DNA from: an uncultured Alphaproteobacteria bacterium | GTDB taxonomy: Bacteria; Pseudomonadota; Alphaproteobacteria; Rs-D84 | Direction of reading: 5' to 3' | DNA: 64,000 bases | NCBI GenBank assembly: GCA_905233975.1 | Contig: CAJOGD010000001.1 | Location: forward strand, 162,635-226,634 | Shown: piece after piece, positions 18,942 through 59,437 of the stretch | Layout of the letters: each line of letters starts with the position of its first letter | Position numbering within the stretch: position 1 is the stretch's first letter | Notes under the pieces: model-generated | The model's database searches: none | Told to the model about the DNA's origin: nothing | What the model saw: only the letters and a program-made list of their open reading frames with translations | Made by a program: the position numbers and the translations under genes

Positions 18942-20060
18942 TTATTGTTCCTGGGGGATGTAAAGATTTGCGTTTATTTCCGGCCCCGCCCGAAACGTTC
19001 CCGATCCAGACGCTTTGAAATCGCGGCCGATTGTGTCATACATTCCAACATCGTTCCCATGTCTTGCCGGCACAAGGTTTTGAATAAGTTCCCCATTTCT
19101 GTACACCTTATAACTTTTAATGCTGCCGTTAAAATAATACCCGTAAGATCCGCCATAATACCGCGCAAACAAATAATTGTTTGCTGTATTTGTAAATGAA
19201 AACGGTGTGAAATTAACGGTGTTATTATCTATGCTAAGACGTCCCGATACAAAATCGTGAACAATTTTATGCCAATTTGTATCCACAGGTATATTGGTGT
19301 TGACTTTGGTGTTTGTTGAATCATAGGCGTAATATGTTTGATATGCATAAAACGCGCTGCTTTCCCCGGTTTCGTACACCCCATATATGGCACCATATCC
19401 TGTCGCAGAAGAATTTTTAAATTCCGTTTCAACGACATCTGTCCCGGCAAGTTTTATTTCTGTATCAATCCATTGTGTGCCGTCGGATTCAATCCATTCC
19501 AATGGTGTGTAACCGGTCGGTAAAAGTGTGTTATCCGTCGTTGGATTATGTATCGAATAAACCCAACAAAGGTCTGTATCGGGTTTAAATTCCTTACATT
19601 TAAATTCGTTATCAAGTCCGGTCTTTAATGCCGCATTAAATGTTTTCGCATCGATAAGGTTGTCCGCTTGTTCGGTGTATGTGCCGGTGGCCTGATAAAT
19701 CCCCTTTTGCCCTATTCCGCCCGGCTGTCCGGTATATGTGACGGCGGTGTGGTCGTTGACGGCGGCGATGTCGTCTTGTTTCTGATTTAATTTTGTATTA
19801 ACGCCACCAACCATGGGAAGTGATGTGTCGGTTGTGTCGCTGCCCAAATCGGATTTAACTGTGCGTTTCTGCACCGTTCCGGCCGAATCGGTGTATTCCA
19901 TGGCTTTATTCGTGTCCACGCCAAATTTGTTTTGTCGCGTACTAAGTTCATGTTCGACATATTTTAATGACGTCGCGGTTTTCCGGTCCGCCGCTTCTTC
20001 GGCAAACGCTGGCAGTACCGCCGCAATCAACCCGAACAATAAAAACTTTTTTAAATGCAT
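18942..20060 (-). CDS. Secreted variable-family protein, paralog 1 (conserved N-terminal domain, unique C-terminal domain, ends YIPQEQ)
   Basis: Sec signal MHLKKFLLFGLIAAVLPAFA|EE. About 170 aa are nearly identical to the ORFs at 38121, 45432 and 58487. SD 'aagggagag'. Confidence 0.8.
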   Translation of the reverse strand: MHLKKFLLFGLIAAVLPAFAEEAADRKTATSLKYVEHELSTRQNKFGVDTNKAMEYTDSAGTVQKRTVKSDLGSDTTDTSLPMVGGVNTKLNQKQDDIAAVNDHTAVTYTGQPGGIGQKGIYQATGTYTEQADNLIDAKTFNAALKTGLDNEFKCKEFKPDTDLCWVYSIHNPTTDNTLLPTGYTPLEWIESDGTQWIDTEIKLAGTDVVETEFKNSSATGYGAIYGVYETGESSAFYAYQTYYAYDSTNTKVNTNIPVDTNWHKIVHDFVSGRLSIDNNTVNFTPFSFTNTANNYLFARYYGGSYGYYFNGSIKSYKVYRNGELIQNLVPARHGNDVGMYDTIGRDFKASGSGTFRAGPEINANLYIPQEQ

Positions 20061-20456
20061 ATCGCTCTCCCTTTTTCGTTTTAATAACCACTAAAACAAA
20101 CACCGCAATGGAAACCAAGCGGTCGGGGTGTTAGCGTATCACTCAAAACCAAATGATTGTCGACTTTTGGCAAAGCCTGTTGTATAACCGACGCACCCCG
20201 AACCTTTTTATTCGGGGAAAACATAACGATGCAAAATTACAGAAAATTGTCGGATTACGATGTATTCTAATAATTCTGCACCGGGTTTGATAGAGCACGC
20301 TAATGCCCCGAACCAGATTCCCATCTAGTTCAACGCTATTCTATCAGAACACACCAAAACGGGTCAAGGATTTTTTAGTGGTATTTTGCAAACGGGCCGT
20401 CGGGACCGGCTTACTTTTCACTTTTCTTTTATATTTTTTACTATTATAATGCGGGC
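20061..20456 (-). promoter_or_regulatory. Type-A conserved 5' leader: extended -10 box plus a structured ~270-nt 5' UTR
   Basis: Box cTGATAGAATAG (rc of 20336-20347). It shares long blocks (gatgggaatctggttcg, catcgtaatcc, caccccgaccgcttggtttccattgcgg) with the leader at 46398-46800. It has the hairpin ccccgaataaaaggttcgggg. Confidence 0.55.
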
Positions 20457-21500
20457 ATGTTAAAAATGATAAAATCTTTGATGATGCCACGCGCAACGAA
20501 AGTGACCGCGGGCGAATTGGCGGAAATGTTCGGTTTGGAACTGCGCGGAAATCCGAACACCGTTATATCGGGCGTTGCGCCGATCGCGGACGCGCGTGCG
20601 GGTCAAATTGCGTTCTATTCGACGGAACAGAACAGCAATGCGTTCAAGATTTTACCCGTATCTGTTTTGGAAAATACGCGCGCAAGTGTGATTTTATTGC
20701 AACCGGAAATGGTGTCGCATGCGCCAAATGGTGCGACGCTGTTGGTGTGCAACAGCCCGCGCGGCGAAATCGTAAAAATTTTGGGTGTGGTCTATCGCGA
20801 ACCGCCGCGGCGCGGAATATCTTCCGACGCGGTTATCGAACGTGGCGTGTTCTTTCGCAATCGGCGCAGTGTTTATGTCGGTCAATTCGCAACAATCGAA
20901 TCCGGCGCGGTTATCGAACCGGATGTGAAAATTTACCCGAATGTATATATCGGTCGTAACGTCACGATTGGTCGCGGAACGGTCGTTCATTCGGGCGCAC
21001 ATATTGAAAACGCAACAATCGGCGCGGATTGCGTAATTCACAATGGCGCATCAATTGGCAAGGACGGATTCGGCTATACCCGCCAAGACGGCCACAATGT
21101 CTTTATTCCGCACGTTGGTCGCGTTGTTATCGGCAACCGCGTGTCAATCGGTGCAAATTCCTGTGTCGATAGGGGTGCGCTTACTGATACAATGATTGGC
21201 GACGGGACCAAGGTGGATAACCTTTGCCAAATCGCGCATGGTGTTGTGATTGGTCGCGAATGCTTTTTGGCGGCGGGCGTCGGAATCGCGGGCGGTGTTA
21301 AAATCGGCGACCGCGCATTGCTTGCCGGGCATGTCGGCGTTGCCAACGGGGTCAAGATAGGTAATGATACCGAGGTTGGCGCGAACAGCGGCGTTTTCCG
21401 CGATATTCCGGACGGCGGTCGCCATATGGGCTATCCGGCGATGCCCGGGACGGAATTCTTGCGCCACTATGCGTGGGTAAAAAAACATATGAACGATTAA
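20457..21500 (+). CDS. lpxD: UDP-3-O-acylglucosamine N-acyltransferase
   Basis: Left-handed beta-helix hexapeptide repeats and an LpxD-like N-terminus. The true start may be an internal Met a few codons downstream. Confidence 0.8.
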   Translation: MLKMIKSLMMPRATKVTAGELAEMFGLELRGNPNTVISGVAPIADARAGQIAFYSTEQNSNAFKILPVSVLENTRASVILLQPEMVSHAPNGATLLVCNSPRGEIVKILGVVYREPPRRGISSDAVIERGVFFRNRRSVYVGQFATIESGAVIEPDVKIYPNVYIGRNVTIGRGTVVHSGAHIENATIGADCVIHNGASIGKDGFGYTRQDGHNVFIPHVGRVVIGNRVSIGANSCVDRGALTDTMIGDGTKVDNLCQIAHGVVIGRECFLAAGVGIAGGVKIGDRALLAGHVGVANGVKIGNDTEVGANSGVFRDIPDGGRHMGYPAMPGTEFLRHYAWVKKHMND

Positions 21501-21515
21501 TCAAAAGGGAACAAA

Positions 21516-21956
21516 ATGATTGATGCAACGGGTATAGAACGTGTTATTCCACATCGCGGCCACATGCGACTGGTTGATGAAATTCGCGAATTTACGGATA
21601 AAACCGCGACGGGCATAAAGTATGTGCGCGACGACGAATTTTGGTGCGCGGGTCATTTCCCGGCAAAATCAATCATGCCCGGCGTGTTGATAGTAGAGGC
21701 ATTGGCCCAAACCGCGTGCTTTACGATACTGAATGCAATCGGAAACAACGGCGGCAAAGCATTGGGCTATTTCGTCACAATCGAAAACGCAAAGTTCACA
21801 CATATGGTCGTGCCGGGCGATGTGTTGGAATTAAAGATAGAAGAAGTTGGCGCAAAAATGAAGCTGCACAAATTCGTTGGAAACGCGTTTGTAAATGGCA
21901 AACGTGTCGCAACGGCAACCTTTTCCGCCATGTTGGACAACGACCCACAGATTTAA
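21516..21956 (+). CDS. fabZ: 3-hydroxyacyl-[ACP] dehydratase
   Basis: Hot-dog fold, HFPAKSIMPGVLIVEALAQ motif. It follows lpxD as in the lpxD-fabZ-lpxA cluster. Confidence 0.85.
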   Translation: MIDATGIERVIPHRGHMRLVDEIREFTDKTATGIKYVRDDEFWCAGHFPAKSIMPGVLIVEALAQTACFTILNAIGNNGGKALGYFVTIENAKFTHMVVPGDVLELKIEEVGAKMKLHKFVGNAFVNGKRVATATFSAMLDNDPQI

Positions 21957-22009
21957 ATCGTTATTCCCAAAAATACTTTTGCGCCTTCACCGATTAGAAA
22001 TGCGGCGAA
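21953..22009. repeat. 57-bp direct repeat, copy 1 (a duplicated 3' end of the VIT-family gene). Copy 2 is at 23632-23688.
   Basis: ttaaatcgttattcccaaaaa(t/c)acttttgcgccttc(a/g)ccgattagaaa(t/c)gcggcgaa. 54 of 57 positions are identical. The two copies flank the 22010-23631 cassette. Confidence 0.85.
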
Positions 22010-22038
22010 GCGTAAGCGAAGACGGACGCGCCTGCGTT

Positions 22039-23376
22039 TTATTGAGCATTGGATGATATTGTTTGTATAAAGTGAACCGGCAAATCTGAACAATTAATAG
22101 TCCCTCCTTCAGATATATTTGCAGTATACTCTGCATAATACATAGCGCAATTACTTATATTCGCACATAAATGTTCGTTTACGTATGCCTGGGGGGAAAT
22201 ACCATCTGGCATATTAACAGCATACTCTGTGTTAATAAAACCTGACTGAGTATTAATGTTTGTGACACTATGTCCCGCTTGCCGTTTGAGTATACTGAAC
22301 CTGTTGTTACCTTTTTCACATAAAGAGCACCATTTATCCGAAAAAGTTCCACCACAGAAATTCAAGGCAAAATCTACAATTTCGCTATCTGATGCATCCG
22401 TTTCATATGTATAATATTTTACAAGTTCACCATACCGAGAATTTAAGTTAATAAGGTTAAAATATGGTTCTTGTTGTGTGCCACCCCCCGGATTTGTTGC
22501 GAGAGAGGCAATGGCTTCTTGAACAGCGCCCGCAGTAATCAATTGGTCTTCGTCCTCCATGTTTTCTAAACTTGTTGCTATCATTGTTGGTCTTATACGA
22601 ACTTCTTTTGCATTAGATGAATTGGTGTGCAATTCTATATAATCGCTACCGATGGCAATAGGGGTCCACCCACCATTTGGGGCACCAAGACTTAACGTTG
22701 TTGATTGGTCTTGTTTTTCATTCAGGGCGTTTGTTACGATTTTATTTTGTACGGGGTGTGTACTGGTTGTGGATAGGTTTCCGTCAACGACAATAACATC
22801 GTCGCCACCAATTACAACGTCACCAACATGAACAACGACCAAATTACCGTTCGGGTCGGTCCAGGTCATATTTCCCCTATCGTCAAGTTGGGGCAATTTT
22901 TTGATTACACTCGATAGTAAATTATCTATTTCTTCCTTTGTGTATGTTTTGGATTCGACGCTAGATGTGATTTTATTATCAATATTTGATTCTGTTATGA
23001 CTGTGCTTTGTTCTGCCTTGGCATCGACGAGTTTAGCTTGTAATTCTTCAATTTGTGAATTGATTTCGGCAAGGTCTTGTTTGGCGGCTTCTTGGTCTTT
23101 TATTGGCTTGGATTTCGAACTTTTGAAAAGTTTGGCTATTGCCATACGCGCTTCGGTTGATTCGTTTTTAACGGGTGTGGCAACAGATGTTGCATTGGAC
23201 ACAGGCGTTGTTTTTAATGTTGGGGCGCGCAGTGTTCCGGCGCGCGCCGATGTGATTGCTTGGGGTGTTGAATTTGTATTGTTTCCTGTTTTGGGCACCC
23301 GCACCGATGCCGCACCAAACGCCGCGGTTGTTATTGTGACAAGTGCTGTCGTGGTGAAAAGTGTTTTGGCCTTCAT
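22039..23376 (-). CDS. Secreted Ser/Thr-rich coiled-coil protein (445 aa), cargo of the inserted cassette
   Basis: Signal peptide MKAKTLFTTTALVTITTAAFGAAS. A coiled coil (EINSQIEELQAKLVDAKAE) is followed by a beta-rich C-terminus (VVVHVGDVVIGGDDVIVVDG). It is preceded by the family -10 box. Confidence 0.7.
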   Translation of the reverse strand: MKAKTLFTTTALVTITTAAFGAASVRVPKTGNNTNSTPQAITSARAGTLRAPTLKTTPVSNATSVATPVKNESTEARMAIAKLFKSSKSKPIKDQEAAKQDLAEINSQIEELQAKLVDAKAEQSTVITESNIDNKITSSVESKTYTKEEIDNLLSSVIKKLPQLDDRGNMTWTDPNGNLVVVHVGDVVIGGDDVIVVDGNLSTTSTHPVQNKIVTNALNEKQDQSTTLSLGAPNGGWTPIAIGSDYIELHTNSSNAKEVRIRPTMIATSLENMEDEDQLITAGAVQEAIASLATNPGGGTQQEPYFNLINLNSRYGELVKYYTYETDASDSEIVDFALNFCGGTFSDKWCSLCEKGNNRFSILKRQAGHSVTNINTQSGFINTEYAVNMPDGISPQAYVNEHLCANISNCAMYYAEYTANISEGGTINCSDLPVHFIQTISSNAQ

Positions 23377-23631
23377 TTTTTCTCCTTGCCTTCGTGCTAG
23401 GTAAACAGGACATAAAACAGCCCCGAACCAGATTTCATGGATTCAACGTTATTGTATCACAAAAAATGGACAATGAAAAATATATAATTTTGGTTGCGTT
23501 TTTGAACACCGTCATACCGCGGAAACGCGGTATCGTGTCGAACTTTCTGTGAATTTGCTATACGGATGAAACCACCCACAAAAATGTTACACATTTTTGT
23601 GGGGCTCGGTACTGCGGTATGACGGTGATTC
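23377..23631 (-). promoter_or_regulatory. Short leader with the family -10 box, plus a MITE-like palindromic module at the cassette's right end
   Basis: Box TGATACAATAA (rc of 23451-23461). Palindromes gtcataccgcggaaacgcggtat and cccacaaaaatgttacacatttttgtggg, also found at 38008-38075. Confidence 0.5.
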
Positions 23632-24120
23632 TTAAATCGTTATTCCCAAAAACACTTTTGCGCCTTCGCCGATTAGAAACGCGGCGAATGTGACAAGAAA
23701 GCATACCGAAAGCATTTCAATAAATGCCGGCCAGAATCTCTGGGCGTTTAGTTTTGATTTAAGAAAATTGAAAAAGAATATTATCGCGACCGCCACAACA
23801 TAGGTCATGATTGTTGCGATAATTGTATTCGACGTGAAAACAAACGGAACCAGCAGCATGCCGGCCGTTGCAACATATGCGCCGCCCGTCATAAACCCGC
23901 GCGCGGCCGCAATGCGCACGTTGCCACCCGCCTTTTGCGACAGGTATTCCGACGCCGTCATTGAAAGCCCCGCCGACATTGCGGCGATTGTCCCGGTCAG
24001 CACGATGACATATTGCGTTGCGTCTGCGAATGCAAGTCCCACAACCAGCCCCAGCGTCGAAACCAACGCATCGTGCATGCCCAAAACCAATGATGACCAA
24101 AAAGAATCTTGCGAAGTCAT
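23632..24120 (-). CDS. VIT1/CCC1-family (DUF125) membrane protein, iron/manganese transporter-like
   Basis: Multi-TM pattern with conserved G and E residues typical of the VIT family. Its 3' end is the template for the duplicated 57-bp repeat. Confidence 0.5.
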   Translation of the reverse strand: MTSQDSFWSSLVLGMHDALVSTLGLVVGLAFADATQYVIVLTGTIAAMSAGLSMTASEYLSQKAGGNVRIAAARGFMTGGAYVATAGMLLVPFVFTSNTIIATIMTYVVAVAIIFFFNFLKSKLNAQRFWPAFIEMLSVCFLVTFAAFLIGEGAKVFLGITI

Positions 24121-24174
24121 GTAAAAAATTTACCCCATTTTCATGGGGCAAATATACAAGATTAAATTCATATT

Positions 24175-24792
24175 TTACCATGTTGGCGCATGGTCGCCTT
24201 CCTTTACAATCGGGCGTTCGTCTTCCCACACCGAAAGACCGGTTTTAATATCGGTAAGTGTCATTTGCAAATAATATTCTACGCGCGTATCAATCGATGA
24301 AAACCAACCAGATTGCAATTTCATATTACGCTGAATCATCTTTCCTGAAAGCGACATGTTCGGCGCAACCAACGTTCCCTTTTGTGCGATTGTTGATTGG
24401 TCATATTCGTCATCACCGCGCGCCGCACGCACCGCATATGTTGATGTGTCTTCGGAGTAATCGTTATTTTCAAACGCGGTTGAAACCTGCGCCCGACCAG
24501 AATTGATAAGCGTCATGCGAATTTTTTTAACCAAAATATCCGTATCGAACCGCTGCATAGTATCGTTTTTTATTTCACCGATTCCAATCACCGGATTTTT
24601 TACGCGTGCAAACGCGCCACTGGCCAGCATAGATTTAGTCATGGCTTCTGCGGTTTGTGTCCAATCGCGATATTCCAATTCCATTACATGTTGCATATCG
24701 GCAACTTCCTTTTCGTCGTTCAAATCAACAACGCGCACTTCGCCACAGCCAACCAATGCGGCACATAGCGCAAACGGTAAAAGTTTTTTCAT
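24175..24792 (-). CDS. Lipoprotein, LpoB-like (penicillin-binding-protein activator family)
   Basis: Lipobox ALVGC. Size and motif pattern resemble LpoB (COG3417). Confidence 0.4.
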   Translation of the reverse strand: MKKLLPFALCAALVGCGEVRVVDLNDEKEVADMQHVMELEYRDWTQTAEAMTKSMLASGAFARVKNPVIGIGEIKNDTMQRFDTDILVKKIRMTLINSGRAQVSTAFENNDYSEDTSTYAVRAARGDDEYDQSTIAQKGTLVAPNMSLSGKMIQRNMKLQSGWFSSIDTRVEYYLQMTLTDIKTGLSVWEDERPIVKEGDHAPTW

Positions 24793-24804
24793 GTTTTCTC
24801 CTTT

Positions 24805-26022: not shown

Positions 26023-26026
26023 ATTC

Positions 26027-28285: not shown

Positions 28286-28342
28286 CGTGTTATGATTATA
28301 TCAGAAAAAAGAAAAACAATAAAGCATGGAAACGAATTTTAT

Positions 28343-34154: not shown

Positions 34155-34197
34155 GTGGGAAAACAACTCTCACTAACCACTTACACTAACCACTAAA

Positions 34198-37847: not shown

Positions 37848-38126
37848 GTGGCGAGTGTTAGTGCTAGTGATTGGTGCGCGGGGCAACAAAGCCCCGCTTT
37901 TTTATTTCCGTCATATCGCGCTATCGGGCCCCGCAAAAAATGCCGTCATACCGCTGTAAAGCGGTATCTCGTCGGAACCGTCGCGGGGTAATTCTCAGAA
38001 AAGCCTAAGGAGATACCGCGTCAGGCGCGGTATGACGGCTTGAAATCACCCACAAAAAACGCTATGCGTTTTTTGCGGGGGCCGATACCGCGGGGTGACG
38101 TCACTAATACTTCCCACTAATTATTG
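37848..38126. mobile_element. MITE-like composite repeat (~280 bp). TTAGTG-type terminal arms enclose nested palindromes.
   Basis: Left arm gtggcgagtgttagtgctagtgattggtg. Right arm gtcactaatacttcccactaattattg. Internal: gcggggcaacaaagccccgctttttt (the accC terminator), gtcataccgctgtaaagcggtat, ataccgcgtcaggcgcggtatgacgg and cccacaaaaaacg..cgttttttgcggggg. Confidence 0.6.
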
Positions 38127-39128
38127 ATTCTGGGGGATATAAATTGTTTCTCCGTTCCAATCTTCTTCCACCGGCGTGGCAAGTGGATAATACACCGTCA
38201 CCGGTGTTCCTGCGGCGTATTGCCCGGCAAGATAGGCTTCAAAATCGGCAATTGTTGGATAATTAACACGCGACACATTCACCGTAAATGAACCAACACC
38301 ATCTATACGGGCATAGCGCAAAGCCGACGTTATTGCATCTGCGTTATACTGGTAATTTCCCTGTCTTGGAAAGTTTGAATAATAACCACTAGTTGCCCAA
38401 TTTAACCACTCTTCTGTTCCGTCCAAAACCTTTACCCCAACGCGTCGTGTGATTTTGTGGGTTGTGGCGTCGTATGAATCGGCATAGTCGCCAACGCGAC
38501 GCAGAATTAGGTTATCTTGTTGATAAAAAACGGGATAAATCGGATTTTCTGGCGTCGGTGTGCCGTCTTGTGTGACGGTGCCGGTCGCCGAAACGTATTC
38601 GGTGTTATTATGTATCGTATAGAGCCAACAAAGGTTGGACACCGGATCGCGGTTATCTTCCCTACATACAAATTCACTATCAAGACCATTCTTTAATGCC
38701 GCGTTGAACGTTTTGGCGTCAATCAGGTTGTCGGATTGGGTGGCATACGATTCGCTTGTTTGATAAATTCCTTTCCGCCCTATTCCACCCGGTTGGCCTG
38801 TATATGTGACGGCGGTGTGATCGTTAACCGGGCCAATGTCATCTTGCTTTTGATTTAATTTTGTATTCACACCACCAACCATGGGCAGTGATGTGTCGGA
38901 CGTATCGCTACCCAAATCGGATTTAACTGTGCGTTTCTGCACATCGCCGGCCGAATTAGTGTATTCCATGGCCTTGTCCGCTTCCGCGGTAAATTTATTT
39001 TGTCGTGTACTAAGTTCATGTTCGACATATTTTAATGACGTCGCCGTCTTGCGGTCCGCGGCTTCTTCCGCCACCGCCGGCAACACCGCCGCAATTAATC
39101 CGAACAACAAAAACTTTTTCAAAAACAT
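38121..39128 (-). CDS. Secreted variable-family protein, paralog 2 (ends YIPQNQ)
   Basis: Start set at MFLKKFLLFGLIAAVLPAVA (SD 'aaggggagg'). The N-terminal 170 aa are conserved. The C-terminus is unique. Confidence 0.8.
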   Translation of the reverse strand: MFLKKFLLFGLIAAVLPAVAEEAADRKTATSLKYVEHELSTRQNKFTAEADKAMEYTNSAGDVQKRTVKSDLGSDTSDTSLPMVGGVNTKLNQKQDDIGPVNDHTAVTYTGQPGGIGRKGIYQTSESYATQSDNLIDAKTFNAALKNGLDSEFVCREDNRDPVSNLCWLYTIHNNTEYVSATGTVTQDGTPTPENPIYPVFYQQDNLILRRVGDYADSYDATTHKITRRVGVKVLDGTEEWLNWATSGYYSNFPRQGNYQYNADAITSALRYARIDGVGSFTVNVSRVNYPTIADFEAYLAGQYAAGTPVTVYYPLATPVEEDWNGETIYIPQNQ

Positions 39129-39385
39129 TTTCCTCCCCTTTGTTCTTTGCACTAACACTAAGTAAAAAACCACAGAAAACGTGTGGTTGGAGGTTAACGA
39201 CTATAATGTTCGGAAAATAGTGGGCTTATTCGATATATTCACCGCCCTCCAACCAAATTAGGTTGGAGGTGTTTTATGTCCCCGCGGACACCGAACATTA
39301 TAAAGGGTCGTTACACCACATCGGCGGAACACCCACCGACAGACCTATTCTATCAAAAAACGGAAATAAAAAACAAGAGAAAAAA
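39129..39385 (-). promoter_or_regulatory. Type-B conserved 5' leader: extended -10 box, a conserved hairpin, and a terminator-like hairpin 35 nt before the start codon
   Basis: Box TTTTGATAGAATAG (rc of 39346-39357). Hairpin cctccaacc-N7-ggttggagg (39245-39269). Hairpin aaccacag-aaaacg-tgtggtt plus a U-run (39163-39189). About 200 nt are almost identical to 58157-58320. Confidence 0.6.
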
Positions 39386-39538
39386 GTGGTTAGTGTTAGT
39401 GATTAGTGTAAGTGGTTTGTGTTCCGCCTTCGCTGTCGCTGCGCCGCGACTGCGCCAGGGTTTCGCCCCGGCTTGGTGTAAAAGAAACGGGCGCAAATGC
39501 GCCCGCACTAATCACTTACACTAACACTTTTCACTATC
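39386..39538. mobile_element. MITE-like repeat with TTAGTG or CACTAA inverted arms (~150 bp)
   Basis: Left arm gtggttagtgttagtgattagtgtaagtggtttgtg. Right arm cactaatcacttacactaacacttttcactatcc. GC-rich palindromes lie inside. Confidence 0.6.
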
Positions 39539-45431: not shown

Positions 45432-46397
45432 TTATTGGTTTTGCGGGATATACACGTTTTTGTATGGTTCGTATTCTGTAATAACGTCACCTTGTTCCAA
45501 CTGCAAACCGTTCGCAAGTTGTATAAGCTGGTTTTGTGAAAATGAACCGAAACTTGAAATATTTATATATGCCGCATTATCTTGGAAAGTCCAACGCCTG
45601 CCTAGCCATATATGGTCGTTATTGGCACTGGTGGTATGCGCTGAAATTATCCGACCGTTTGCATCATAAACATATAAATTAAACTGTGTTGTAATATTAC
45701 AATTGGTAGAACCATTATAACTCAATATATACGTTTCACCGCCAATAATCGGAATAGGTGAACCGTTTGCCAATTTACCAGCGTTAGGTGCTTGGGTCGT
45801 ATACGTGGCGCCCCCATAGCTAGCCCAATCATTAAAACCAATATTGTTTTTATTAAATAAATTTTTGGTGTGTTCTTCGGTTGGGTTGTGTATCGAATAC
45901 ACCCAACAAAGGTCTGTTCCGGGTTTAAATTCCTTACATTTGAATTCTCTATCAAGTCCCTTCTTTAATGCGGCGTTAAAGGTTTTGGCGTCGATTAAAT
46001 TATCCGATTGTTCGGCGTATGTGCCGGTTGTCTGATAAATTCCTTTCTGCCCTATTCCGCCGGAATCACCGGTATATGTGACGGCGGTATGGTCGTTCAC
46101 CGCGGCGATGTCGTCCTGTTTTGTATCAAGTTTTGTATTCACGCCACCAACCATAGGCAGTGAATCTGTCCCGCCATTATCTAAATCCGATGTGACCGCA
46201 CGTTTTTGCACCGTTCCGGCCGCATTAGTATATTCCATCGCCTTGTTTGCTTCCGCGGTAAATTTATTTTGACGTGTATCAAGTTCATGTTCGACATAGT
46301 TAAGTGACGTTGCTGTTTTGCGGTCCGCGGCTTCCTCCGCCACCGCCGGCAATATTGCCGCCATCAACCCGAACAACAAAAACTTTTTCAACTGCAT
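45432..46397 (-). CDS. Secreted variable-family protein, paralog 3 (ends YIPQNQ)
   Basis: Start at MQLKKFLLFGLMAAILPAVA (SD 'aaggaga'). The N-terminus is conserved. The unique C-terminus contains a QLEQGDVITEYEPY jelly-roll-like terminal strand. Confidence 0.8.
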   Translation of the reverse strand: MQLKKFLLFGLMAAILPAVAEEAADRKTATSLNYVEHELDTRQNKFTAEANKAMEYTNAAGTVQKRAVTSDLDNGGTDSLPMVGGVNTKLDTKQDDIAAVNDHTAVTYTGDSGGIGQKGIYQTTGTYAEQSDNLIDAKTFNAALKKGLDREFKCKEFKPGTDLCWVYSIHNPTEEHTKNLFNKNNIGFNDWASYGGATYTTQAPNAGKLANGSPIPIIGGETYILSYNGSTNCNITTQFNLYVYDANGRIISAHTTSANNDHIWLGRRWTFQDNAAYINISSFGSFSQNQLIQLANGLQLEQGDVITEYEPYKNVYIPQNQ

Positions 46398-46800
46398 ATC
46401 GCTCTCCTTTTCTTTTTTCCCCGTCATCCCGCGCTTGACGCGGGATCTCCCCGTTATTGTCGCGGTTTTGCCCCTCGACGGCTCCGACGGGATTCCGGCT
46501 TTCGCCGGAATGACGGCTTTATGTAAGTCTCACTAGCCACTAACACTTACACCAAAATAAGTGCCGCAATGGAAACCAAGCGGTCGGGGTGTTCGAAAAT
46601 CATTTATGTCATTGATTCCCATGGCCTTTTGCAAAAGCATTATAGCCATAGGCACCCCAACATTGGGGTAAAATCTATAACGGTGCAAAACACGAATGGA
46701 GATTACGTGGATTACGATGCTTTGCACCGGACATAAACAGGCTTTCGACAGCCACGAACCAGATTCCCATCTGACTCACATTCATTATATCAAAAACCTT
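46398..46800 (-). promoter_or_regulatory. Type-A conserved 5' leader (second copy) with an upstream palindromic repeat module
   Basis: Box TGATATAAT (rc of ~46784-46793), a perfect extended -10. The covarying hairpin ccccaatgttgggg stands in for ccccgaataaaaggttcgggg of copy 1. It shares caccccgaccgcttggtttccattgcgg. Confidence 0.55.
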
Positions 46801-46817
46801 GGAAATGCGTCAAGACG

Positions 46818-46842: not shown

Positions 46843-46843
46843 A

Positions 46844-49998: not shown

Positions 49999-50000
49999 CG

Positions 50001-51182: not shown

Positions 51183-51187
51183 AGCCA

Positions 51188-53136: not shown

Positions 53137-53137
53137 T

Positions 53138-54004
53138 TTATTTTGATAATTTTTCATACATTGCCGATAGAAATGGAATATCGACCCTAACCTCGTTCGC
53201 CTTGGTGACAAGTGCGGCAAGTGCTGATAATCCTTCGACGGTGCCAATGGGCTTTTCGCCCTTTGCAAGCGCAACACCCGCAGAAAAATTACGGCTTGTT
53301 GTCGATGTGGCGGTCAGCAATAAATCACCAAGCCCACAAAAATCAAGAAATGTTTTCTCCAGGGCGCCCAATTTTAACCCCAATCGAACAACATCGTTCC
53401 ACGTGGTCGTCATGGAAAGCGCGGATTCGTTTTCCCCCCTGCCCTTGACTTTAACATAACCACTAATCACAGAAACCGCATTTTTACCAACGCCACAAAG
53501 AATAGTTCCAATGACATCGTCAGTATAGCTTAGGTATAATTGGTTAAACACCTTTTCGCCGATATTGTGAATCTTGTCACTGCCTGCAAGTGTTGAACCC
53601 GTTGGGACGCCATGTGCAACCTCGCCCGCGAATTGCGGCCCCGATAAAACACCAATGTTTTGCTTGGCGGGTTTGATTGTTTCATACAAAACCTCGGTCA
53701 TGAATTTACCGGTTTTCGGTTCCGCGCCCTTGGTGCAAATAATAATCGGTTGACCGGCATAAAAATCTTTGGCCTTTGCCATGGTATCACGAAAGAAAGC
53801 CGCCGGTGTGACCGCAATCCATGTATCACAGTCTTGCAAATCGCCCATATTCATCGTCACAATCACGCGTTGTGGTAAATCGATACCATCAAAATGTTCA
53901 TAGTTTCCTTCGAACGACCACAAAACAACATCGTTTCCGCCACGCGCAACAGTATGTGCAAGCGCACTGCCCCATGCTCCTGCGCCTATGATTCCTACTT
54001 TCAT
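53138..54004 (-). CDS. gpsA: Glycerol-3-phosphate dehydrogenase [NAD(P)+]
   Basis: Rossmann motif KVGIIGAGAWGSALA and GpsA-like catalytic region. Confidence 0.7.
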   Translation of the reverse strand: MKVGIIGAGAWGSALAHTVARGGNDVVLWSFEGNYEHFDGIDLPQRVIVTMNMGDLQDCDTWIAVTPAAFFRDTMAKAKDFYAGQPIIICTKGAEPKTGKFMTEVLYETIKPAKQNIGVLSGPQFAGEVAHGVPTGSTLAGSDKIHNIGEKVFNQLYLSYTDDVIGTILCGVGKNAVSVISGYVKVKGRGENESALSMTTTWNDVVRLGLKLGALEKTFLDFCGLGDLLLTATSTTSRNFSAGVALAKGEKPIGTVEGLSALAALVTKANEVRVDIPFLSAMYEKLSK

Positions 54005-55611
54005 TTTATTTTCCTTATTTTTTTCTGTATATTTGGCACGACAACCAAACCATCTTCGGACAATTCAATTGCCCGATTATACGCCTCTCGTGCAAGGCCC
54101 GGCTTGCCCGCGGCCACATATGCGTCACCCAAATGTTCAAACAGCGATGAACACGAATTTGCGGTTCCTGCAATCTTTTCAAGTATATCCAATGCCTCGT
54201 CATTCCCTTCGCGGACCGATACAACAACCGCAACGGTATCCCACGCAAATATGTCCATAGGGTCGAGTTTAACCATTGCCATGGCATAGGTATAGGCCTC
54301 TTCTATTTCGCGTTCCTGGGCGGCCCAGATTCGTGCCTGAATAGCCAATATTTCTGGGTCCGGTATTTGGGCTTTTGCAATTTCTCGAATATCGCTTTGG
54401 GCGCGCTCATAATCGCCGAACATCATATAAACAAATGCGCGTTTCTTCATCAGGTATGCACGCCCCGATTCAGAAAGATTTTCATTATCCAACGTGCGAT
54501 TTATCACGCGCAAGGCATGTGATTTGTCCCCTGCCCTGATATGTGCCGCAACGATTTTGTTAAGCGCGGGAATAAACAACTGGTGCGCCCGCAAAATCTT
54601 TTCAATTTCAATAATGGAATCTGTGGTTTTCATTTTTGCGAACAGATAGAACGGACTATCCGCCGAAATAGAATTAAAATAATGTGCATAATTTCCATGT
54701 GTGTTCGCAAAAAACTGTCCGGTGTAGTAATTTATCATGTCTTGAAAGAATTGCGAATCTTGACCGATTATTTGCGCAAAACGCAACATTAACACCGAAA
54801 GATCGGAATAAAGCATTACTTGCGAATGCGAAACATTTTGAATCACATTAAAGGCCAATTCGTTCTTGGTGCCCGCAAAGGTCGTTTTCCAATCCGGAAT
54901 ATCGTCATAGTAAGACAAAAACATTCCGCCCGGTGTTGCGGAAAAACTTTGTTTCAAAATCTCTGCGTTTTCATTCATGCCATGTGTGCGATAAAACGAC
55001 ATGATATAGATATAATCGTTCATGTTCATAAAATCCGTACGAACATTGGCAAACGCGCCAGCGGCCTTTTCGAAATCGCCAGATTCTGCATATATTTGGC
55101 CGCGCACGAACATTTTCCACGACGGATTAGATTCTAACTTTTCTATATATTTTAAAACGTCCTTTGTGTGCCCTGCCCCGACGCCGGACCAAATACGAAA
55201 AGGCGCATATATCGTAAGCTTGTCGGCGTGGTGCCGTTTGTACAGGTCGGCCCAACGATTGTTTTTGGCCAGGTACGCGTCGTATATAATTTTTGCCGCA
55301 ATGCCCTTTTCGTCGGCAAGTTTTTTCACGTCCTTTGGAATGTCGCCAGACAGGAAATCGACCAATGCACGCGTATCTTGGACAACGCCATATTCGACAT
55401 CGTTAACACCGTCCATAAATTCTTTAGCTTTATCAAAATCATTCGCGTAAACCGCATGCTGGGCGGCCAAGAAATCGCCGTATTTGCAAGATTCGGTTTC
55501 GTTTGTATCCGGTAATTTTTCCGCCGAAAAAATATGCAGGGACGCGACGTAGATTAAAACTCCGACTATTGTGAATAACCCGCAAAAAAATAACGTTTTT
55601 AATTTTGTCAT
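54001..55611 (-). CDS. Membrane-anchored TPR-repeat protein (536 aa)
   Basis: N-terminal TM followed by many TPR-like repeats. Confidence 0.55.
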   Translation of the reverse strand: MTKLKTLFFCGLFTIVGVLIYVASLHIFSAEKLPDTNETESCKYGDFLAAQHAVYANDFDKAKEFMDGVNDVEYGVVQDTRALVDFLSGDIPKDVKKLADEKGIAAKIIYDAYLAKNNRWADLYKRHHADKLTIYAPFRIWSGVGAGHTKDVLKYIEKLESNPSWKMFVRGQIYAESGDFEKAAGAFANVRTDFMNMNDYIYIMSFYRTHGMNENAEILKQSFSATPGGMFLSYYDDIPDWKTTFAGTKNELAFNVIQNVSHSQVMLYSDLSVLMLRFAQIIGQDSQFFQDMINYYTGQFFANTHGNYAHYFNSISADSPFYLFAKMKTTDSIIEIEKILRAHQLFIPALNKIVAAHIRAGDKSHALRVINRTLDNENLSESGRAYLMKKRAFVYMMFGDYERAQSDIREIAKAQIPDPEILAIQARIWAAQEREIEEAYTYAMAMVKLDPMDIFAWDTVAVVVSVREGNDEALDILEKIAGTANSCSSLFEHLGDAYVAAGKPGLAREAYNRAIELSEDGLVVVPNIQKKIRKIK

Positions 55612-55637
55612 TTGTGAAAATATGCTACAATAATAAT

Positions 55638-56210
55638 ATGAATAGTAAAGAAAAATTTATACGCTATGCGGAAATTCTGCGCGATTGGAATTCGCGAATG
55701 AATCTTGTTGCGCGCGGCACGTTGGACGATATTGAAAACCGGCATTTTGCGGATTCGGCGCAGCTTGCGGACGTTTTGCCAACGGGCGTCCATGTTATCG
55801 ATTTTGGGTCTGGGGCCGGGTTCCCGGGTGTGGTTTTGGCGATTTTGGGCTGGCACGTGACATGTATCGAATCGATTGGCAAAAAAGTATCTTTTCTAAA
55901 TGAATTAAAAACGAAACTTGAACTTGAAAATCTAACAATTTATCATGGGCGGGTTGAAGACTTTTTGCCGGGCTTTTTGAACAAAAATGCAAAAAAAGCC
56001 GGGGATTTTGTTATAACCGCACGTGCTTTCGCGTCACTTGTAAAGATTTTAGATTATGTTCGGGGGATAAATTGCCGGCTTTTTTTGCTAAAAGGCCGGG
56101 AAATAGAAAGTGAAATTGCTGACGCAAAAAAGAAATATCGGTTTGATTATGAATTGACGCCATCGAAAACGGGCGACGGTTTTGTAATAAGTGTGCGATT
56201 CGGATTATAA
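55638..56210 (+). CDS. rsmG: 16S rRNA (guanine527-N7)-methyltransferase RsmG (GidB)
   Basis: SAM motif VIDFGSGAGFPG. It lies upstream of parA-parB. The start was set at MNSKEKFIRY. Confidence 0.8.
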   Translation: MNSKEKFIRYAEILRDWNSRMNLVARGTLDDIENRHFADSAQLADVLPTGVHVIDFGSGAGFPGVVLAILGWHVTCIESIGKKVSFLNELKTKLELENLTIYHGRVEDFLPGFLNKNAKKAGDFVITARAFASLVKILDYVRGINCRLFLLKGREIESEIADAKKKYRFDYELTPSKTGDGFVISVRFGL

Positions 56211-56329
56211 TTTCATGTGAAATAACGATTAGCGTATTGATTTTACGGCATTTTTTAATTTTGTTTTTTATTTCTTGATTCTGGGGCGGTTCGTTTATAT
56301 ACTGCAACAAAAAGAACGAAGGAAAGGAT

Positions 56330-57103
56330 ATGACGGAAATAATCGCGTTTGCAAATCAAAAAGGTGGCGTTGGCAAAACCACGACGGCAATAAATTTGGG
56401 TGCTTCGCTTGCGGCGATAAAAAAACGGGTTTTGTTGATAGATTTGGATTCCCAGGGTAATGCCGGGACGGGTCTTGGGTTTGTGCGTTCTTCACACACG
56501 CAAAGTGTCTATGATGTAATTATGGGTGTGTCGGGCGTTGCGGAAAATATACTTTCGACCGCGGTCCCGGGCATGCACATCTTGCCATCGACCCAGGCAC
56601 TTGCCGGGGCCGAGGTTGAATTGCTGGACATGGAAAACAAAGAATATCGTCTGCGTGATGCGTTGCAACCGATAATGGAACACTATGATTATATTTTGTT
56701 GGATTGCCCACCAAATTTGGGGTATATAACGCTTAATGCGCTGACTACGGCAAATCATGTGATTATACCGCTGCAGTGCGAGTTCTTTGCTCTGGAGGGG
56801 GTTTTGCACCTTATAAATACAATCAAAGGTATTCGGGAAAAGTGGAATCCAAATTTAGATGTGTTGGGCGTTTTGCTGACCATGTACGATCGGCGGTATG
56901 GCATGACGCGTGATGTCGAAGACAATGTTCGCGAAACGTTCGGTGATTTGGTGTTCAAAACGGTTGTCCCGCGCAATGTCCGCGTGGCCGAGGCGCCAAG
57001 TCATGGCAAACCGGCACTGTTTTACGATTTTAATTCAAGCGGCGCCCAGGCGTATTTGCGCTTTGCGACCGAGGTTATTCAGAAAATAGAAAAGGGGGAA
57101 TAA
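56330..57103 (+). CDS. parA: Chromosome partitioning ATPase ParA
   Basis: Deviant Walker A NQKGGVGKTTT. Confidence 0.9.
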   Translation: MTEIIAFANQKGGVGKTTTAINLGASLAAIKKRVLLIDLDSQGNAGTGLGFVRSSHTQSVYDVIMGVSGVAENILSTAVPGMHILPSTQALAGAEVELLDMENKEYRLRDALQPIMEHYDYILLDCPPNLGYITLNALTTANHVIIPLQCEFFALEGVLHLINTIKGIREKWNPNLDVLGVLLTMYDRRYGMTRDVEDNVRETFGDLVFKTVVPRNVRVAEAPSHGKPALFYDFNSSGAQAYLRFATEVIQKIEKGE

Positions 57104-57104
57104 T

Positions 57105-57989
57105 ATGGGAAAATTTGGCCTTGGACGGAATTTAACGGATTTACAGACTGAAATGGGCGTGGCGCCGGAAATATCGATATTAAACGGCGCCGAACGTGTT
57201 GTTGTGCGGCAAATCCCGATGGCGCAAATCGGTGTGAACCCTGACCAACCGCGCAAGACATTTACTCCCGAAGATTTGGCGGATTTGTCGGCGTCTATAA
57301 AAGAGAAGGGCGTGTTGCAGCCGATTCTGTTGCGTTCGGTTAAAAATCGGCCGTATATGTATGAAATTGTCGCGGGCGAACGCCGCTATCGCGCAAGTAA
57401 AATGGCGGGCCTCTCCGAAATTCCGGCGTTGGTAAAGAATTTGGCGGACAATAATGCGATGGAAATCGCGCTGATCGAAAACGTGCAACGCGAAAACCTG
57501 AACCCGATAGAGGAGGCCGCGGCGTATGTGAACCTTATGAACAAATGTGAATACAGCATGGCGGACGTGTCTAATTTGATTGGGAAATCCGAAAGTTATA
57601 TCCGGAATTTGGTGCGCCTTAACGGTTTGCCGGTGTCGGTCAAAAAAATGGTAGAGCAGGGCGCACTTTCCGCATCGCACGCGCGTGCGATTGCCGTCGC
57701 CGAAGACCCGGAAAAAATGGCGCGCGAAATTGTAGCGCAAAAATTATCGGTCGCGGACACCGAAAAACGCATGAAAAACGTGGCGCGTTCCGGCCAAAAC
57801 CGCAAGTTTGCAAATAAAACCATGGACACAAAAACCGTCAAAGAATTGACGGCGCGTGCGGGGCGCGCCCTGGGTGCAACGGTCAAAATTACCGAAAAAC
57901 GCGGCGGCGCTGGCGTGATAACAATAAACTTTGACACGCGTAATCAGTTGAACGAAATCATCGACAAAATTGCCGGCCGAATCGCATAA
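57105..57989 (+). CDS. parB: Chromosome partitioning protein ParB
   Basis: ParB box GERRYRA and an HTH region. Confidence 0.9.
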   Translation: MGKFGLGRNLTDLQTEMGVAPEISILNGAERVVVRQIPMAQIGVNPDQPRKTFTPEDLADLSASIKEKGVLQPILLRSVKNRPYMYEIVAGERRYRASKMAGLSEIPALVKNLADNNAMEIALIENVQRENLNPIEEAAAYVNLMNKCEYSMADVSNLIGKSESYIRNLVRLNGLPVSVKKMVEQGALSASHARAIAVAEDPEKMAREIVAQKLSVADTEKRMKNVARSGQNRKFANKTMDTKTVKELTARAGRALGATVKITEKRGGAGVITINFDTRNQLNEIIDKIAGRIA

Positions 57990-58010
57990 AAATATCAAAA
58001 AACCCGGGAA

Positions 58011-58126
58011 GTGCAGTGTAAGTGTTAGTGGTTAGTGATAGTGACGTCATACCGCCCTTCGGCGGTATGACGCGGTTCAGGCAGAACTTACACTAATTAC
58101 TAATACTAATCACTAACACTAACCAC
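58011..58126. mobile_element. MITE-like element (~116 bp). TTAGTG and CACTAA inverted terminal arms surround a perfect hairpin.
   Basis: Left arm gtgcagtgtaagtgttagtggttagtgatagtg. Central hairpin acgtcataccgcccttcggcggtatgacg. Right arm ttacactaattactaatactaatcactaacactaaccac. Confidence 0.65.
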
Positions 58127-58130
58127 TTTT

Positions 58131-58486
58131 TTCACTTGTTTTTTGTTTCTGTTTTTTGATAGAATAGGGGTGTCGGTGGGTGTTCCGCCGGCGGGGTGTC
58201 AAGACCCTTGGGTTCCGGGTGTCCGCGGGGACATAAAATACCTCCAACCAAAAAGTGGTTGGAGGGCGGTGAATATATCGAATAAGCCCACTATTTTCTC
58301 GGAACATAGTCTTGAACCTCCAACCACTAGAAGATTTTCGGTGGTTTCGTTTATTTGTGTGCAAATAAACGAAACAGCAGAGAACCGTCATTCCGGCGAA
58401 TCCGCCGCGGATTGGGTCTCTGCAACACTTAGGAGATACCGCGTCAAGCGCGGTATGACGAGAAAAAAGGAAACAAGGGGAGAAAA
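58131..58486 (+). promoter_or_regulatory. Type-B conserved 5' leader (second copy): extended -10 box plus a ~310-nt structured 5' UTR
   Basis: Box TTTTGATAGAATAG (58157-58168). Hairpin cctccaacc-aaaaagt-ggttggagg (58241-58265). Terminator-like hairpin aaccac..gtggtt plus a U-rich run (58311-58345). Palindromes ccgtcattccggcgaa.. and gagataccgcgtcaagcgcggtatgacg come before SD 'aaggggag'. Confidence 0.6.
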
Positions 58487-59437
58487 ATGCAATTGAAAAA
58501 GTTTTTGATGTTCGGGTTGATGGCGGCGGTGTTGCCGGCGGTGGCGGAAGAGGCCGCAGACCGGAAAACGGCGACGTCATTAAAATACGTCGAACATGAA
58601 CTTGATACGCGTCAGAATAAATTTACCGCGGAACAAAACAAAGCCATGGAATACACCGATTCGGCCGGCGTGGTGCAAAAACGTGCCGTCACGTCGGACC
58701 TGGATAATGGTGGAACCGATTCGTTGCCCATGGTTGGTGGTGTGAATACAAAACTAAACCAAAAACAGGACGACATCGCCGCGGTCAACGACCATACCGC
58801 CGTCACATATACCGGGCAGCCCGGCGGAATAGGGCGGAAAGGAATATATCAGGCCACCGAATCGTATGCCAACCAATCTGATAACCTTATCGACGCCAAA
58901 ACGTTCAACGCGGCACTTAAAAACGGACTTGATAGCGAATTTAAATGCAGGGAAGATAACCGCGATCCAGTGTCCGGACTTTGTTGGCTCTATACGATAC
59001 ATAACACCAGTCCGAATTTGTTTGATAAAAATAATTTAACACGCATATATGGTTATTTCCCATCTAGCGGTTCAGATTGGACGTATGTAACCGCAGGATA
59101 TTCAATAAGAATACCATGTCAGCCAAGCACAACATATACGGCGCGTTATAATGGCAATAGTTCCCAAGTTGTATTATCCTTTGCGTCCACAGGCAGTGAT
59201 GAAATACCATTGGGTGGATCGCGTGTTGCATGCACTAACAGTATTCGGCAAAACAACCCAACAATCGATACGCCAATAACATTCACTACTGGTCCAAATG
59301 ACAAATGGCTAATTGTTCAATACAATGTTAACGAACCACAAAATACCGACATGGCAAACAATCTACAGGTTGAAATTGGTTCAACCGCAACACCGTACGT
59401 TCCATACGGCAGCGTTTACATTCCACAGAACCAATAA
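58487..59437 (+). CDS. Secreted variable-family protein, paralog 4 (ends YIPQNQ)
   Basis: MQLKKFLMFGLMAAVLPAVA signal. The N-terminus is a mosaic of paralogs 2 and 3. The unique C-terminus carries LQVEIGSTATPYVPY, a jelly-roll-like terminal strand. Confidence 0.8.
   Translation: MQLKKFLMFGLMAAVLPAVAEEAADRKTATSLKYVEHELDTRQNKFTAEQNKAMEYTDSAGVVQKRAVTSDLDNGGTDSLPMVGGVNTKLNQKQDDIAAVNDHTAVTYTGQPGGIGRKGIYQATESYANQSDNLIDAKTFNAALKNGLDSEFKCREDNRDPVSGLCWLYTIHNTSPNLFDKNNLTRIYGYFPSSGSDWTYVTAGYSIRIPCQPSTTYTARYNGNSSQVVLSFASTGSDEIPLGGSRVACTNSIRQNNPTIDTPITFTTGPNDKWLIVQYNVNEPQNTDMANNLQVEIGSTATPYVPYGSVYIPQNQ

Follow-up and report, generated by a model that had tools for sequence, protein, structure and literature searches.

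Why does a bacterial chromosome carry, at scattered sites, genes whose products begin and end alike but differ in between? This question is raised by a 64,000-nucleotide stretch of an uncultured alphaproteobacterium (assembly GCA_905233975.1, contig CAJOGD010000001.1, positions 162,635 to 226,634), which we refer to as the window. An earlier note had described four secreted paralogs in it, here called A to D, as a dispersed family in which a constant N-terminal module carries a swappable receptor-like domain, and had suggested antigenic variation or host adhesion. That architecture held on analysis, with a constant N-terminal module followed by exchangeable lectin-type C-terminal domains, and so did the remark that the family was not one already recognized, the four paralogs having no match in Pfam, NCBIfam, PHROG or PADLOC; the antigenic-variation reading did not hold. 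The reading that we favor, with about as much belief as doubt, is that the genes are members of a large unnamed family, the products being modular, lectin-type binding proteins that uncultured rumen and gut Alphaproteobacteria export through Sec.

The ORF listing and translations confirmed four complete open reading frames (ORFs): paralog A of 372 amino acids (aa) at 18942..20060 on the minus strand, B of 335 aa at 38121..39128 (minus), C of 321 aa at 45432..46397 (minus) and D of 316 aa at 58487..59437 (plus). The shorter ATG starts proposed earlier are those with upstream GGAG-type ribosome-binding sites (RBSs), and the ATG of B at 39128 is preceded by GGGGAGG. All four proteins open with M.LKKFL.FGL.AA.LPA.A followed by EEAADRK, in keeping with the Sec signal already claimed for them; judged by eye, this is a Sec type-I signal peptide with an AxA site, encoded at 20001-20060 in A, 39069-39128 in B, 46338-46397 in C and 58487-58546 in D. 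Next comes a conserved N-terminal domain (N-domain) of ~155 aa, 72-87% identical among the four paralogs and encoded at 19536-20000, 38604-39068, 45873-46337 and 58547-59011, respectively. The N-termini, which had been called near-identical, are strongly conserved as protein, the first ~175 aa being 72-87% identical, but not as DNA, where identity is 77-81% and synonymous divergence (dS) 0.84-1.05.

Downstream of the N-domain each protein carries an insert and then a six-residue tail. Paralog A has an Ac-type (LamG/ConA-like) insert at 18963-19535, the tail YIPQEQ at 18945-18962 and its stop codon at 18942-18944, while B has a Bc-type insert at 38142-38603, YIPQNQ at 38124-38141 and a stop at 38121-38123. 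The insert of C, of the Dc class, spans 45453-45872 and is followed by YIPQNQ at 45435-45452 and a stop at 45432-45434; in D, a Dc-type insert at 59012-59416 precedes YIPQNQ at 59417-59434 and a stop at 59435-59437. The C-terminal domains had been described as unrelated, which does not hold for C and D: their inserts share ~28% identity (BLAST E about 1e-6) and are homologous, so there are three insert classes rather than four. Likewise, the proteins had been said to converge on YIPQ(N/E)Q. All four do end in this motif, but it is part of a conserved scaffold with insertions placed before it, not a product of convergence.

This layout was visible in the wider family, which reaches far beyond the four genes first described. 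A tblastn search of the window returned no further copies or fragments, in agreement with the count of four copies in 64 kb, whereas an exhaustive HMMER search with the N-domain profile returned 320 cluster representatives (50% identity clusters) at E<=1e-3, with 177 at E<=1e-10 and 34 at E<=1e-30. An initial word-indexed N-domain search had found 4 proteins only and missed the window's own proteins, hence its limited sensitivity. Of the 147 sequences listed, almost all open with a signal-peptide-like N-terminus and continue with a motif resembling TSK.YVD..L..KQD; lengths run from 69 to 714 aa. Every member with a named source is an "Alphaproteobacteria bacterium" protein from a rumen or gut metagenome-assembled genome (MAG). 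Scanning genome contigs with the patterns AEEAADRK and SL[KN]YVEHE, and scanning metagenome contigs, yielded no relatives; a second genome-contig scan located nine loci in three rumen MAGs. One genome, RGIG8185, holds at least seven family copies, all at contig ends, as expected of a repeat that breaks assemblies. Sequence-profile searches of the PDB with the N-domain, N-domain plus Bc, and Ac profiles gave chance matches only, for example to designed pentatricopeptide (PPR) repeats.

Some family members are N-only proteins of ~185 aa, in which the signal peptide and N-domain run directly into ..GTYVPQNQ. Since these members end straight in the tail, the variable domains are insertions between N-domain and tail. 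A Y[IVLMT]P motif lies within the last 12 residues in 126 of 184 members, and family-wide the stretch from the N-domain to the C-terminus measures 0 to 413 residues (median 170). In the EEAADRK subfamily, 27 of 35 proteins end in ..PQNQ whatever their insert (Ac-like, Dc-like or other), and GENIPTSK-subfamily proteins mostly end in ..PSGN or close variants with either insert type. Which tail a protein has therefore goes with its N-domain subfamily rather than with its insert. Throughout the family, two cysteines close to the end of the N-domain are invariant, consistent with an oxidizing, extracytoplasmic location.

Close relatives of individual paralogs were also found. P0125 is 97% identical to paralog C over the insert and P0272 is 100% identical to paralog D over the insert, while P0290 is a fifth paralog, placed by its record on the 245-kb contig that also bears the database copies of A, B and D; its locus (L023; L numbers denote fetched genome loci) was taken from another sample. 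Three truncated family members, P0001, P0003 and P0004, occur in related assemblies (contigs of 271,882 and 101,446 bp). Their reading frame shifts inside the N-domain, in P0001 following ..TYTG.. and in the other two following ..VNTKL... These proteins may be pseudogenes, on/off variants or assembly errors. Phase variation at a homopolymer tract was considered for them and set aside, as the sequences look like deletions or frameshifts of uncertain origin.

To describe the constant part of the proteins in structural terms, we relied on an AlphaFold2 (AF2) model of full-length B built from 44 sequences. Predictions were fed with per-domain and same-architecture alignments, whole multi-domain MAFFT alignments having mis-registered the domains and been discarded. 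The model has a mean predicted local distance difference test (pLDDT) score of 76.9, with the N-domain at about 75-90 and residues 332-335, the last four, below 50. It consists of three helix plus beta-hairpin units, a disordered linker (about 15 residues between N-domain and insert) and then the Bc domain. Three sequence repeats, TSLKYVEHELSTRQNKF, LPMVGGVNTKLNQKQDDI and LIDAKTFNAALKTGLDNEF, match the model units by eye. The N-domain is accordingly predicted to be stalk-like, with three helix-plus-hairpin repeats closed by a Cys-Cys loop. It has no PDB relative and no phage relative, PHROGs giving no credible match.

Longer relatives show how this unit is used elsewhere. In L022 (GCA_045591135.1, contig JAZNSK010000006.1), positions 1322-3592 encode a 756-aa protein of about eight N-domain repeat units; the N-domain profile matches it in eight successive stretches, and the same Cys-Cys cap stands at its end, so the unit can be iterated into a longer rod. 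On the same contig, at 8001-10928, an N-only gene of 185 aa is followed 16 nt on by the gene for a 784-aa protein, which contains four Cys-rich repeats (CWCKMESPGESSW) and has an N-domain in its interior. A protein encoded at L011 (RGIG10173) 2143-3792 alternates N-domain residues 7-89, Ac, N-domain residues 86-152 and Ac, and a binding domain thus seems to have been inserted within the stalk as well as after it.

What do the inserts resemble? As had been suggested in speaking of jelly-roll C-domains of carbohydrate-binding type, one class, Ac, modeled confidently as a LamG/ConA-like jelly roll. A search with Ac and Bc joined by a linker returned 688 matches that fell into three groups. The first consists of family members. 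The second consists of proteins of 440-640 aa with no signal peptide, in which an Ac-like domain (50-60% identity) is followed by a Bc-like one (30-40%). The third is alphaproteobacterial, with proteins of 470-636 aa that have a signal peptide or lipoprotein-like start and, in tandem, Dc-, Bc- and Ac-like domains. A member of the second group is encoded on a 37.7-kb contig (L013), between BppL_N and Mtd_N genes on one side and a DUF1353 plus M15 endolysin pair on the other, surroundings that make up a phage tail and lysis module. BppL_N, YopX and M15 endolysin are typical of phages of Gram-positive bacteria.

The other two insert classes led to phage proteins as well. Residues 192-323 of P0305 are 34% identical to the insert of paralog D; this segment lies directly before an SPP1_Dit C-terminal domain, and P0305 also matches the PHROG distal tail protein Dit. 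A Foldseek comparison of the B model with BFVD gave 19 matches at E<=1e-3; those named by function are phage tail fiber, Dit, BppU, head fiber and similar structural proteins, and most of the others are unnamed proteins of uncultured phages. These matches align over ~120-165 columns, the size of the Bc domain. Taken together, these comparisons relate all three insert classes to phage tail-tip proteins. The argument that a Sec signal speaks against tail fibers is therefore sound for the whole protein but does not extend to its variable domains, the classes of which are all shared with phage tail-tip proteins. The N-domain itself is not a known phage fiber or baseplate-attachment domain, as tblastn against 50,697 deposited phage genomes gave no match to it. 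Its repeated motif P(S/T)..AV...L..KQD is reminiscent of phage fiber repeats.

We next considered how the genes are expressed. A promoter-like site with an extended -10 box lies upstream of every paralog. That of A (20338..20367, minus strand) combines TTGACC, an 18-nt spacer, TAGAAT and the extended -10 TG (10/12 in the scan), and that of C (46784..46813, minus) combines TTGACG, an 18-nt spacer, TATAAT and the extended -10 TG (11/12). Paralogs B and D carry the extended -10 box TGATAGAAT at ~39347-39355 (minus) and ~58157-58165 (plus), each with a weak -35. Each promoter is followed by a leader of 200-245 nt that belongs to one of two unrelated types, type 1 at A and C and type 2 at B and D. 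The type-1 leaders occupy 20089..20333 (minus) in A and 46550..46779 (minus) in C, and score 215 and 223 bits with a covariance model for which both are training sequences. The type-2 leaders occupy 39150..39345 (minus) in B, placed by alignment with the D leader, and 58167..58370 (plus) in D, placed by alignment with the B leader and with that of L019. Other type-1 leaders lie at L011:1750-2002, L016:2067-2290, L017:2005-2271, L021:1234-1458, L022:1097-1300, L022:7759-7958 and L023:2053-2293, and other type-2 leaders at L018:1270-1465 and L019:1167-1372.

The type-1 leader is ~240 nt long, with eight helices and the conserved unpaired motifs CAUCGUAAUCC, GUAUACA and GGAAUC, and in the sequences examined, which include other genomes, it was found only upstream of family genes. 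In a structure built by hand on six sequences, 94% of cells are paired and 13 of 42 pairs show compensatory double changes; none of 500 shuffles was as good, and sliding the pairing partner left 34-45% paired. An eight-sequence alignment that adds the two L022 instances has 16 compensated pairs, with 93-94% of cells paired over both alignments, this covariation coming from only 8-9 sequences and the structure being derived from those same sequences. One long-range helix covaries at five of its six pairs and occurs in several sequence versions. An RNAalifold pairing of the 5' end with the terminator region was replaced by a local 5' hairpin that covaries better. The covariance model, trained on six sequences, also recovered matches outside its training set: two in L022 (E 1.5e-20 and 3.6e-18), before the 756-aa repeat protein and before the N-only gene, and one, with E 4.7e-38, in front of the fifth paralog P0290 in L023. 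On these sequence grounds, the type-1 leader is a candidate new riboswitch-like element. In the type-2 leader, for which there are two effective variants only, a long-range helix has six compensated pairs according to RNAalifold. Neither leader matches an Rfam family; at gathering thresholds the scan of the window returned three tRNAs only, and E-value scans stayed at chance level.

In all copies of both types, a hairpin and a U-rich tract stand directly after the closing helix. The B leader has a terminator-like hairpin, AACCAC..GTGGTT, with a T-run at 39168-39188, the sole one accepted by a strict terminator scan. The corresponding type-1 helix is 83-87% paired with little covariation. Type-2 leaders contain a CCUCCAACC/GGUUGGAGG hairpin and a second CCUCCAACC that overlaps the 5' arm of the terminator; alternative pairing of this second copy with GGUUGGAGG could follow a terminator/antiterminator switch logic. 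The gap from hairpin to start codon is about 35-45 nt in A and B, so that the gene must be transcribed through the leader. Since each gene has its own promoter and a leader with a terminator-like hairpin, regulation is probably by conditional read-through, as in a riboswitch or attenuator, rather than by DNA rearrangement.

The age and placement of the copies bear directly on the mode of variation. With the dS values given above, a dN/dS of 0.09-0.15 between N-domains of paralog pairs, and uninterrupted DNA identity between copies that extends over 23-43 bp at most even when the leaders are counted in, the genes are old duplicates under purifying selection that were not recently homogenized. 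The same dS and short identical runs speak against identical copies borne by an insertion sequence (IS), and the idea of an IS passenger gene was rejected on dS. Informative sites in the N-domain record an old mosaicism: one stretch groups the paralogs as AB|CD, other stretches as AC|BD. Each copy occupies a separate intergenic site among housekeeping genes, as the earlier note had it, with unrelated neighbors on its flanks: MetRS/tRNA-Val and LpxD for A, AccC and Der for B, Skp/TfoX and SspB/RecF for C, and ParAB and Pal/UDG for D. In related strains, positional orthologs of B type and D type sit at AccC/Der and ParAB/Pal/UDG, respectively, and no phage structural genes were seen near any of the four copies in the window.

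These observations bear on four other explanations of the family. In one, the C-terminal cassettes would be exchanged by gene conversion, or the genes switched on and off by frameshifts, giving antigenic or phase variation. The constant-variable-constant layout would suit cassette exchange, the mosaic sites could be its trace, and the truncated P0001, P0003 and P0004 would be candidates for the off state. However, synonymous sites are near saturation, identical runs are short, the 3' constant part is merely 18 nt, the same paralog stands at the same site in related strains, and the frameshifts may be assembly errors. Systems such as pilE/pilS, vlsE and msp2 pair one expression site with promoterless silent cassettes, whereas the window holds four complete ORFs, every copy with its own promoter, leader and RBS, and no promoterless cassette; silent cassettes were seen neither in the window nor in the fetched loci. 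The near-identical DNA flanks of cassette systems are likewise missing at 77-81% N-domain DNA identity. We regard this explanation as highly improbable. In another, the genes would be domesticated tail-fiber genes of a prophage, gene-transfer agent (GTA) or tailocin, scattered over the chromosome yet assembled into a particle. Some fiber genes of alphaproteobacterial GTAs lie outside the main cluster, and the inserts belong to classes shared with phage tail-tip proteins. A cleavable Sec signal throughout the family would nevertheless keep the protein apart from particle assembly in the cytoplasm, neither PHROGs nor the 50,697 phage genomes gave a match to the N-domain, the neighbors are housekeeping rather than phage structural genes, and each gene has its own promoter and structured leader. 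The GTA or prophage fiber idea was rejected on the signal peptide and gene context, and we find it barely credible. Both of these explanations are disfavored by direct tests.

Two further explanations keep the proteins outside the cytoplasm and assign them different tasks. The proteins could be subunits of a polymeric surface fiber, resembling a pilus or S-layer, in which each subunit docks its tail into the N-domain of its neighbor, N-only proteins form the plain shaft and insert-bearing paralogs decorate it. This would account for N-only members of ~185 aa that consist of N-domain and tail and nothing else, for a tail that varies with the subfamily of the N-domain rather than with the insert, for a tail left undocked at low confidence in monomer models, and for an N-only gene in an apparent operon with a larger family member. 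On the other hand, no chaperone, usher, sortase or other assembly gene was seen beside any copy, the window has no N-only member, and the tail is just six residues long; we consider a polymer rather unlikely. Alternatively, envelope-resident proteins could bind the producer's own glycans, either as decoys that mask phage receptors or as organizers of the envelope. Variable domains homologous to phage receptor-binding modules, a signal peptide and conserved disulfide that place the proteins outside the cytoplasm, and a domain repertoire as diverse as in an arms race would all fit. Set against this are the BppL_N, YopX and M15 endolysin genes of L013, the one phage contig examined, which are not typical of an alphaproteobacterial phage, the lack of any PADLOC defense model match and of adjacent phage or defense genes, and the stability of the copies as positional orthologs under purifying selection. 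We therefore hold this explanation to be quite unlikely.

The reading that we favor, a family of exported lectin-type binding proteins, suggests the following mechanism. A conserved scaffold, made of the N-terminal stalk-like module and the C-terminal tail Y-x-P-Q-N-Q, would provide oligomerization and/or attachment to the envelope of the producer. One exchangeable binding domain inserted between stalk and tail would bind a surface glycan on another cell, on a host surface or on a polymer. The genome holds its repertoire of these proteins at set places in the chromosome, each gene being transcribed from its own putative sigma-70-type promoter through one of the two structured leaders. The analysis itself shows the architecture, the size of the family, the homology between inserts and phage proteins, the lectin fold of one class, purifying selection and RNA covariation; we infer that the proteins are displayed at the surface and bind glycans, and likewise their oligomeric state, what the tail does and which signal regulates the genes. 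A bolder version would have the proteins serve as cell-recognition fibers of an uncultured epibiotic or predatory alphaproteobacterium of the rumen or gut, with receptor-binding domains borrowed from the phages that infect the bacteria to which it attaches, two new riboswitch classes that choose the fiber according to an environmental or partner signal, and a scaffold that represents a new mode of surface anchoring or assembly; we judge this version unlikely.

Several points weigh against the reading that we favor. A predicted lectin fold does not prove sugar binding, and of the three insert classes the predicted folds cover Ac and Bc, not Dc. The BFVD matches were assigned to Bc by their aligned length alone. 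When the 50,697 deposited phage genomes were searched by tblastn, Ac had no match and Bc one weak match, and since these genomes are almost without Ac and Bc, the phage link rests on metagenomic contigs. AF2 monomer models leave the tail undocked from the N-domain, with low confidence. The proteins could be retained in the periplasm after Sec export, and no route across the outer membrane was identified. As for control, the type-1 terminator-like hairpins of A and C fail the strict terminator scan.

Among described systems, the closest functional analogue is the mosaic adhesive trimer (MAT) fibers of Bdellovibrio bacteriovorus, a group of 21 members (Caulton et al. 2024, PMC10769870); membership in that group is not supported. 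In MAT proteins, a signal peptide precedes a conserved N-domain of ~130 aa that has no PDB homologue, the variable tips are lectin-like and of phage ancestry, and, as the authors proposed, the N-domain would fix the protein to the cell surface with the tip on display (PMC10769870). The family described here is likewise multigene, with at least five members on about 245 kb compared with 21 in Bdellovibrio. In all paralogs the signal peptide is directly followed by a conserved N-domain, a likeness of architecture only and not of homology, and the exchangeable tips are mosaic, with lectin-type folds and phage-like ancestry. In contrast, no sequence relationship to MAT was detected in the PDB profile search, the PDB holding only C-terminal MAT fragments and the N-domain having been compared by description. 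The MAT N-domain is described as beta-rich (PMC10769870), and the mixed alpha/beta prediction for the N-domain here argues against homology. MAT tips are reported to sit on shafts in which three chains intertwine as a beta-prism or beta-helix, and 13 of the 21 members to have an S74 protease-chaperone domain (PMC10769870). The paralogs here are 316-372 aa long with no beta-prism or beta-helix shaft, and they have no S74 domain, given that no Pfam match at all was obtained and Pfam includes the S74 peptidase model. They also differ in their conserved C-terminal YxPQNQ tail, before which the tip is inserted.

Other comparisons place parts of the system. Like phage receptor-binding proteins, tail fibers and "evolved" Dit proteins into which carbohydrate-binding modules have been inserted, the paralogs carry domains (Ac, Bc and Dc) homologous to those of phage tail modules. 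Unlike tail fibers, they have a Sec signal peptide, an own promoter and leader, and an N-domain absent from PHROGs and the 50,697 phage genomes, and they are found in a chromosomal housekeeping context rather than in a tail or baseplate gene module. They also differ from trimeric autotransporter adhesins, whose YadA-type membrane anchor at the C-terminus goes with head, neck and stalk repeats, since no Pfam domain was found in any paralog and the C-terminus is a six-residue polar tail. P0078-P0117, which are proteins from MAGs of gut and rumen Alphaproteobacteria, share the same three domain classes and signal peptides but are without the N-domain and YxPQNQ tail, combine Dc, Bc and Ac in one chain of 470-636 aa, and have signal peptides that end in a lipobox-like ..A(A/N)C; they make up a second unannotated family. 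The leaders resemble terminating riboswitches and attenuators in their covarying long-range closing helix, multi-helix core and conserved unpaired motifs, and in the hairpin and U-rich tract that follow the closing helix upstream of the RBS. The regulated genes differ from those of riboswitches in that they encode secreted adhesin-like proteins, not enzymes or transporters.

The intergenic regions around the genes also contain repeats, and the stop codons of the four genes had been placed inside an arm of a CACTAA repeat. This was not the case: CACTAA-type arrays form seven intergenic clusters (34171-34197, 39390-39415, 39506-39525, 46538-46564, 58019-58038, 58091-58123 and 61522-61540), none of which covers any of the stop codons. 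The B stop abuts two TTAGTG units and a single TACTAA follows the A stop, with neither present at C or D. The units, (C/T)ACT(A/T)A, often occur as inverted pairs around GC-rich hairpins, and the arrays are a genome-wide intergenic repeat, not a feature of the adhesin genes. Palindromic units resembling repetitive extragenic palindromic (REP) sequences or miniature inverted-repeat transposable elements (MITEs) (CGTCATTCCGGCGAAAGCCGGAATCCCGTCGG... and GATCCCGCGTCAAGCGCGGGATGACG) lie at ~37870-38100, downstream of B, and at 46400-46540 and 58375-58470. In C, CACTAA and REP-like repeats are inserted between leader and RBS (~46400-46549), and in D, REP-like repeats are inserted ahead of the RBS (~58375-58470). 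REP-like units also precede family genes in L016, L017, L019 and L023. We take these REP/MITE-like units to recall the dRS3/Correia repeats of Neisseria.

A further gene in the window has some of the same traits. A 445-aa ORF at 22039-23376 (minus strand) begins in the manner of a signal peptide and contains a low-complexity region, a coiled coil and a Cys-rich C-terminus; its helix motifs NKIVTNALNEKQDQ and LITAGAVQEAIASLA resemble the N-domain, and it has no Pfam match. Upstream of it (23377-23470) are a promoter and the first ~30 nt of a type-1 leader, without the remainder, and the ORF may encode another fiber-like secreted protein under related control. In related genomes, Fic-domain genes adjoin family genes (L018:2534-3553 and L001:3991-5609). 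One of them carries RhuM and adjoins a resolvase. That of L018 sits between the B ortholog and AccC and is absent from that site in the window.

What is new here is the constant-insert-constant layout and the two candidate cis-regulatory RNAs, whereas fiber- or lectin-type adhesins with phage-derived tips are of a known kind. The family is unnamed in any database searched, and it seems to be a main outward-facing toolkit of uncultured rumen and gut Alphaproteobacteria. Its likeness to the MAT fibers with which Bdellovibrio recognizes prey suggests physical contact of these bacteria with other cells or with glycans of a host, and each variable domain could be expressed as a probe for testing such contact. 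The domains also document an exchange of receptor-binding modules between phages and secreted proteins of bacteria. Finally, the two leaders are candidate new classes of cis-regulatory RNA, the covariation of type 1 being enough to justify biochemical work, and adhesin genes would be an unusual target for riboswitch-like control.

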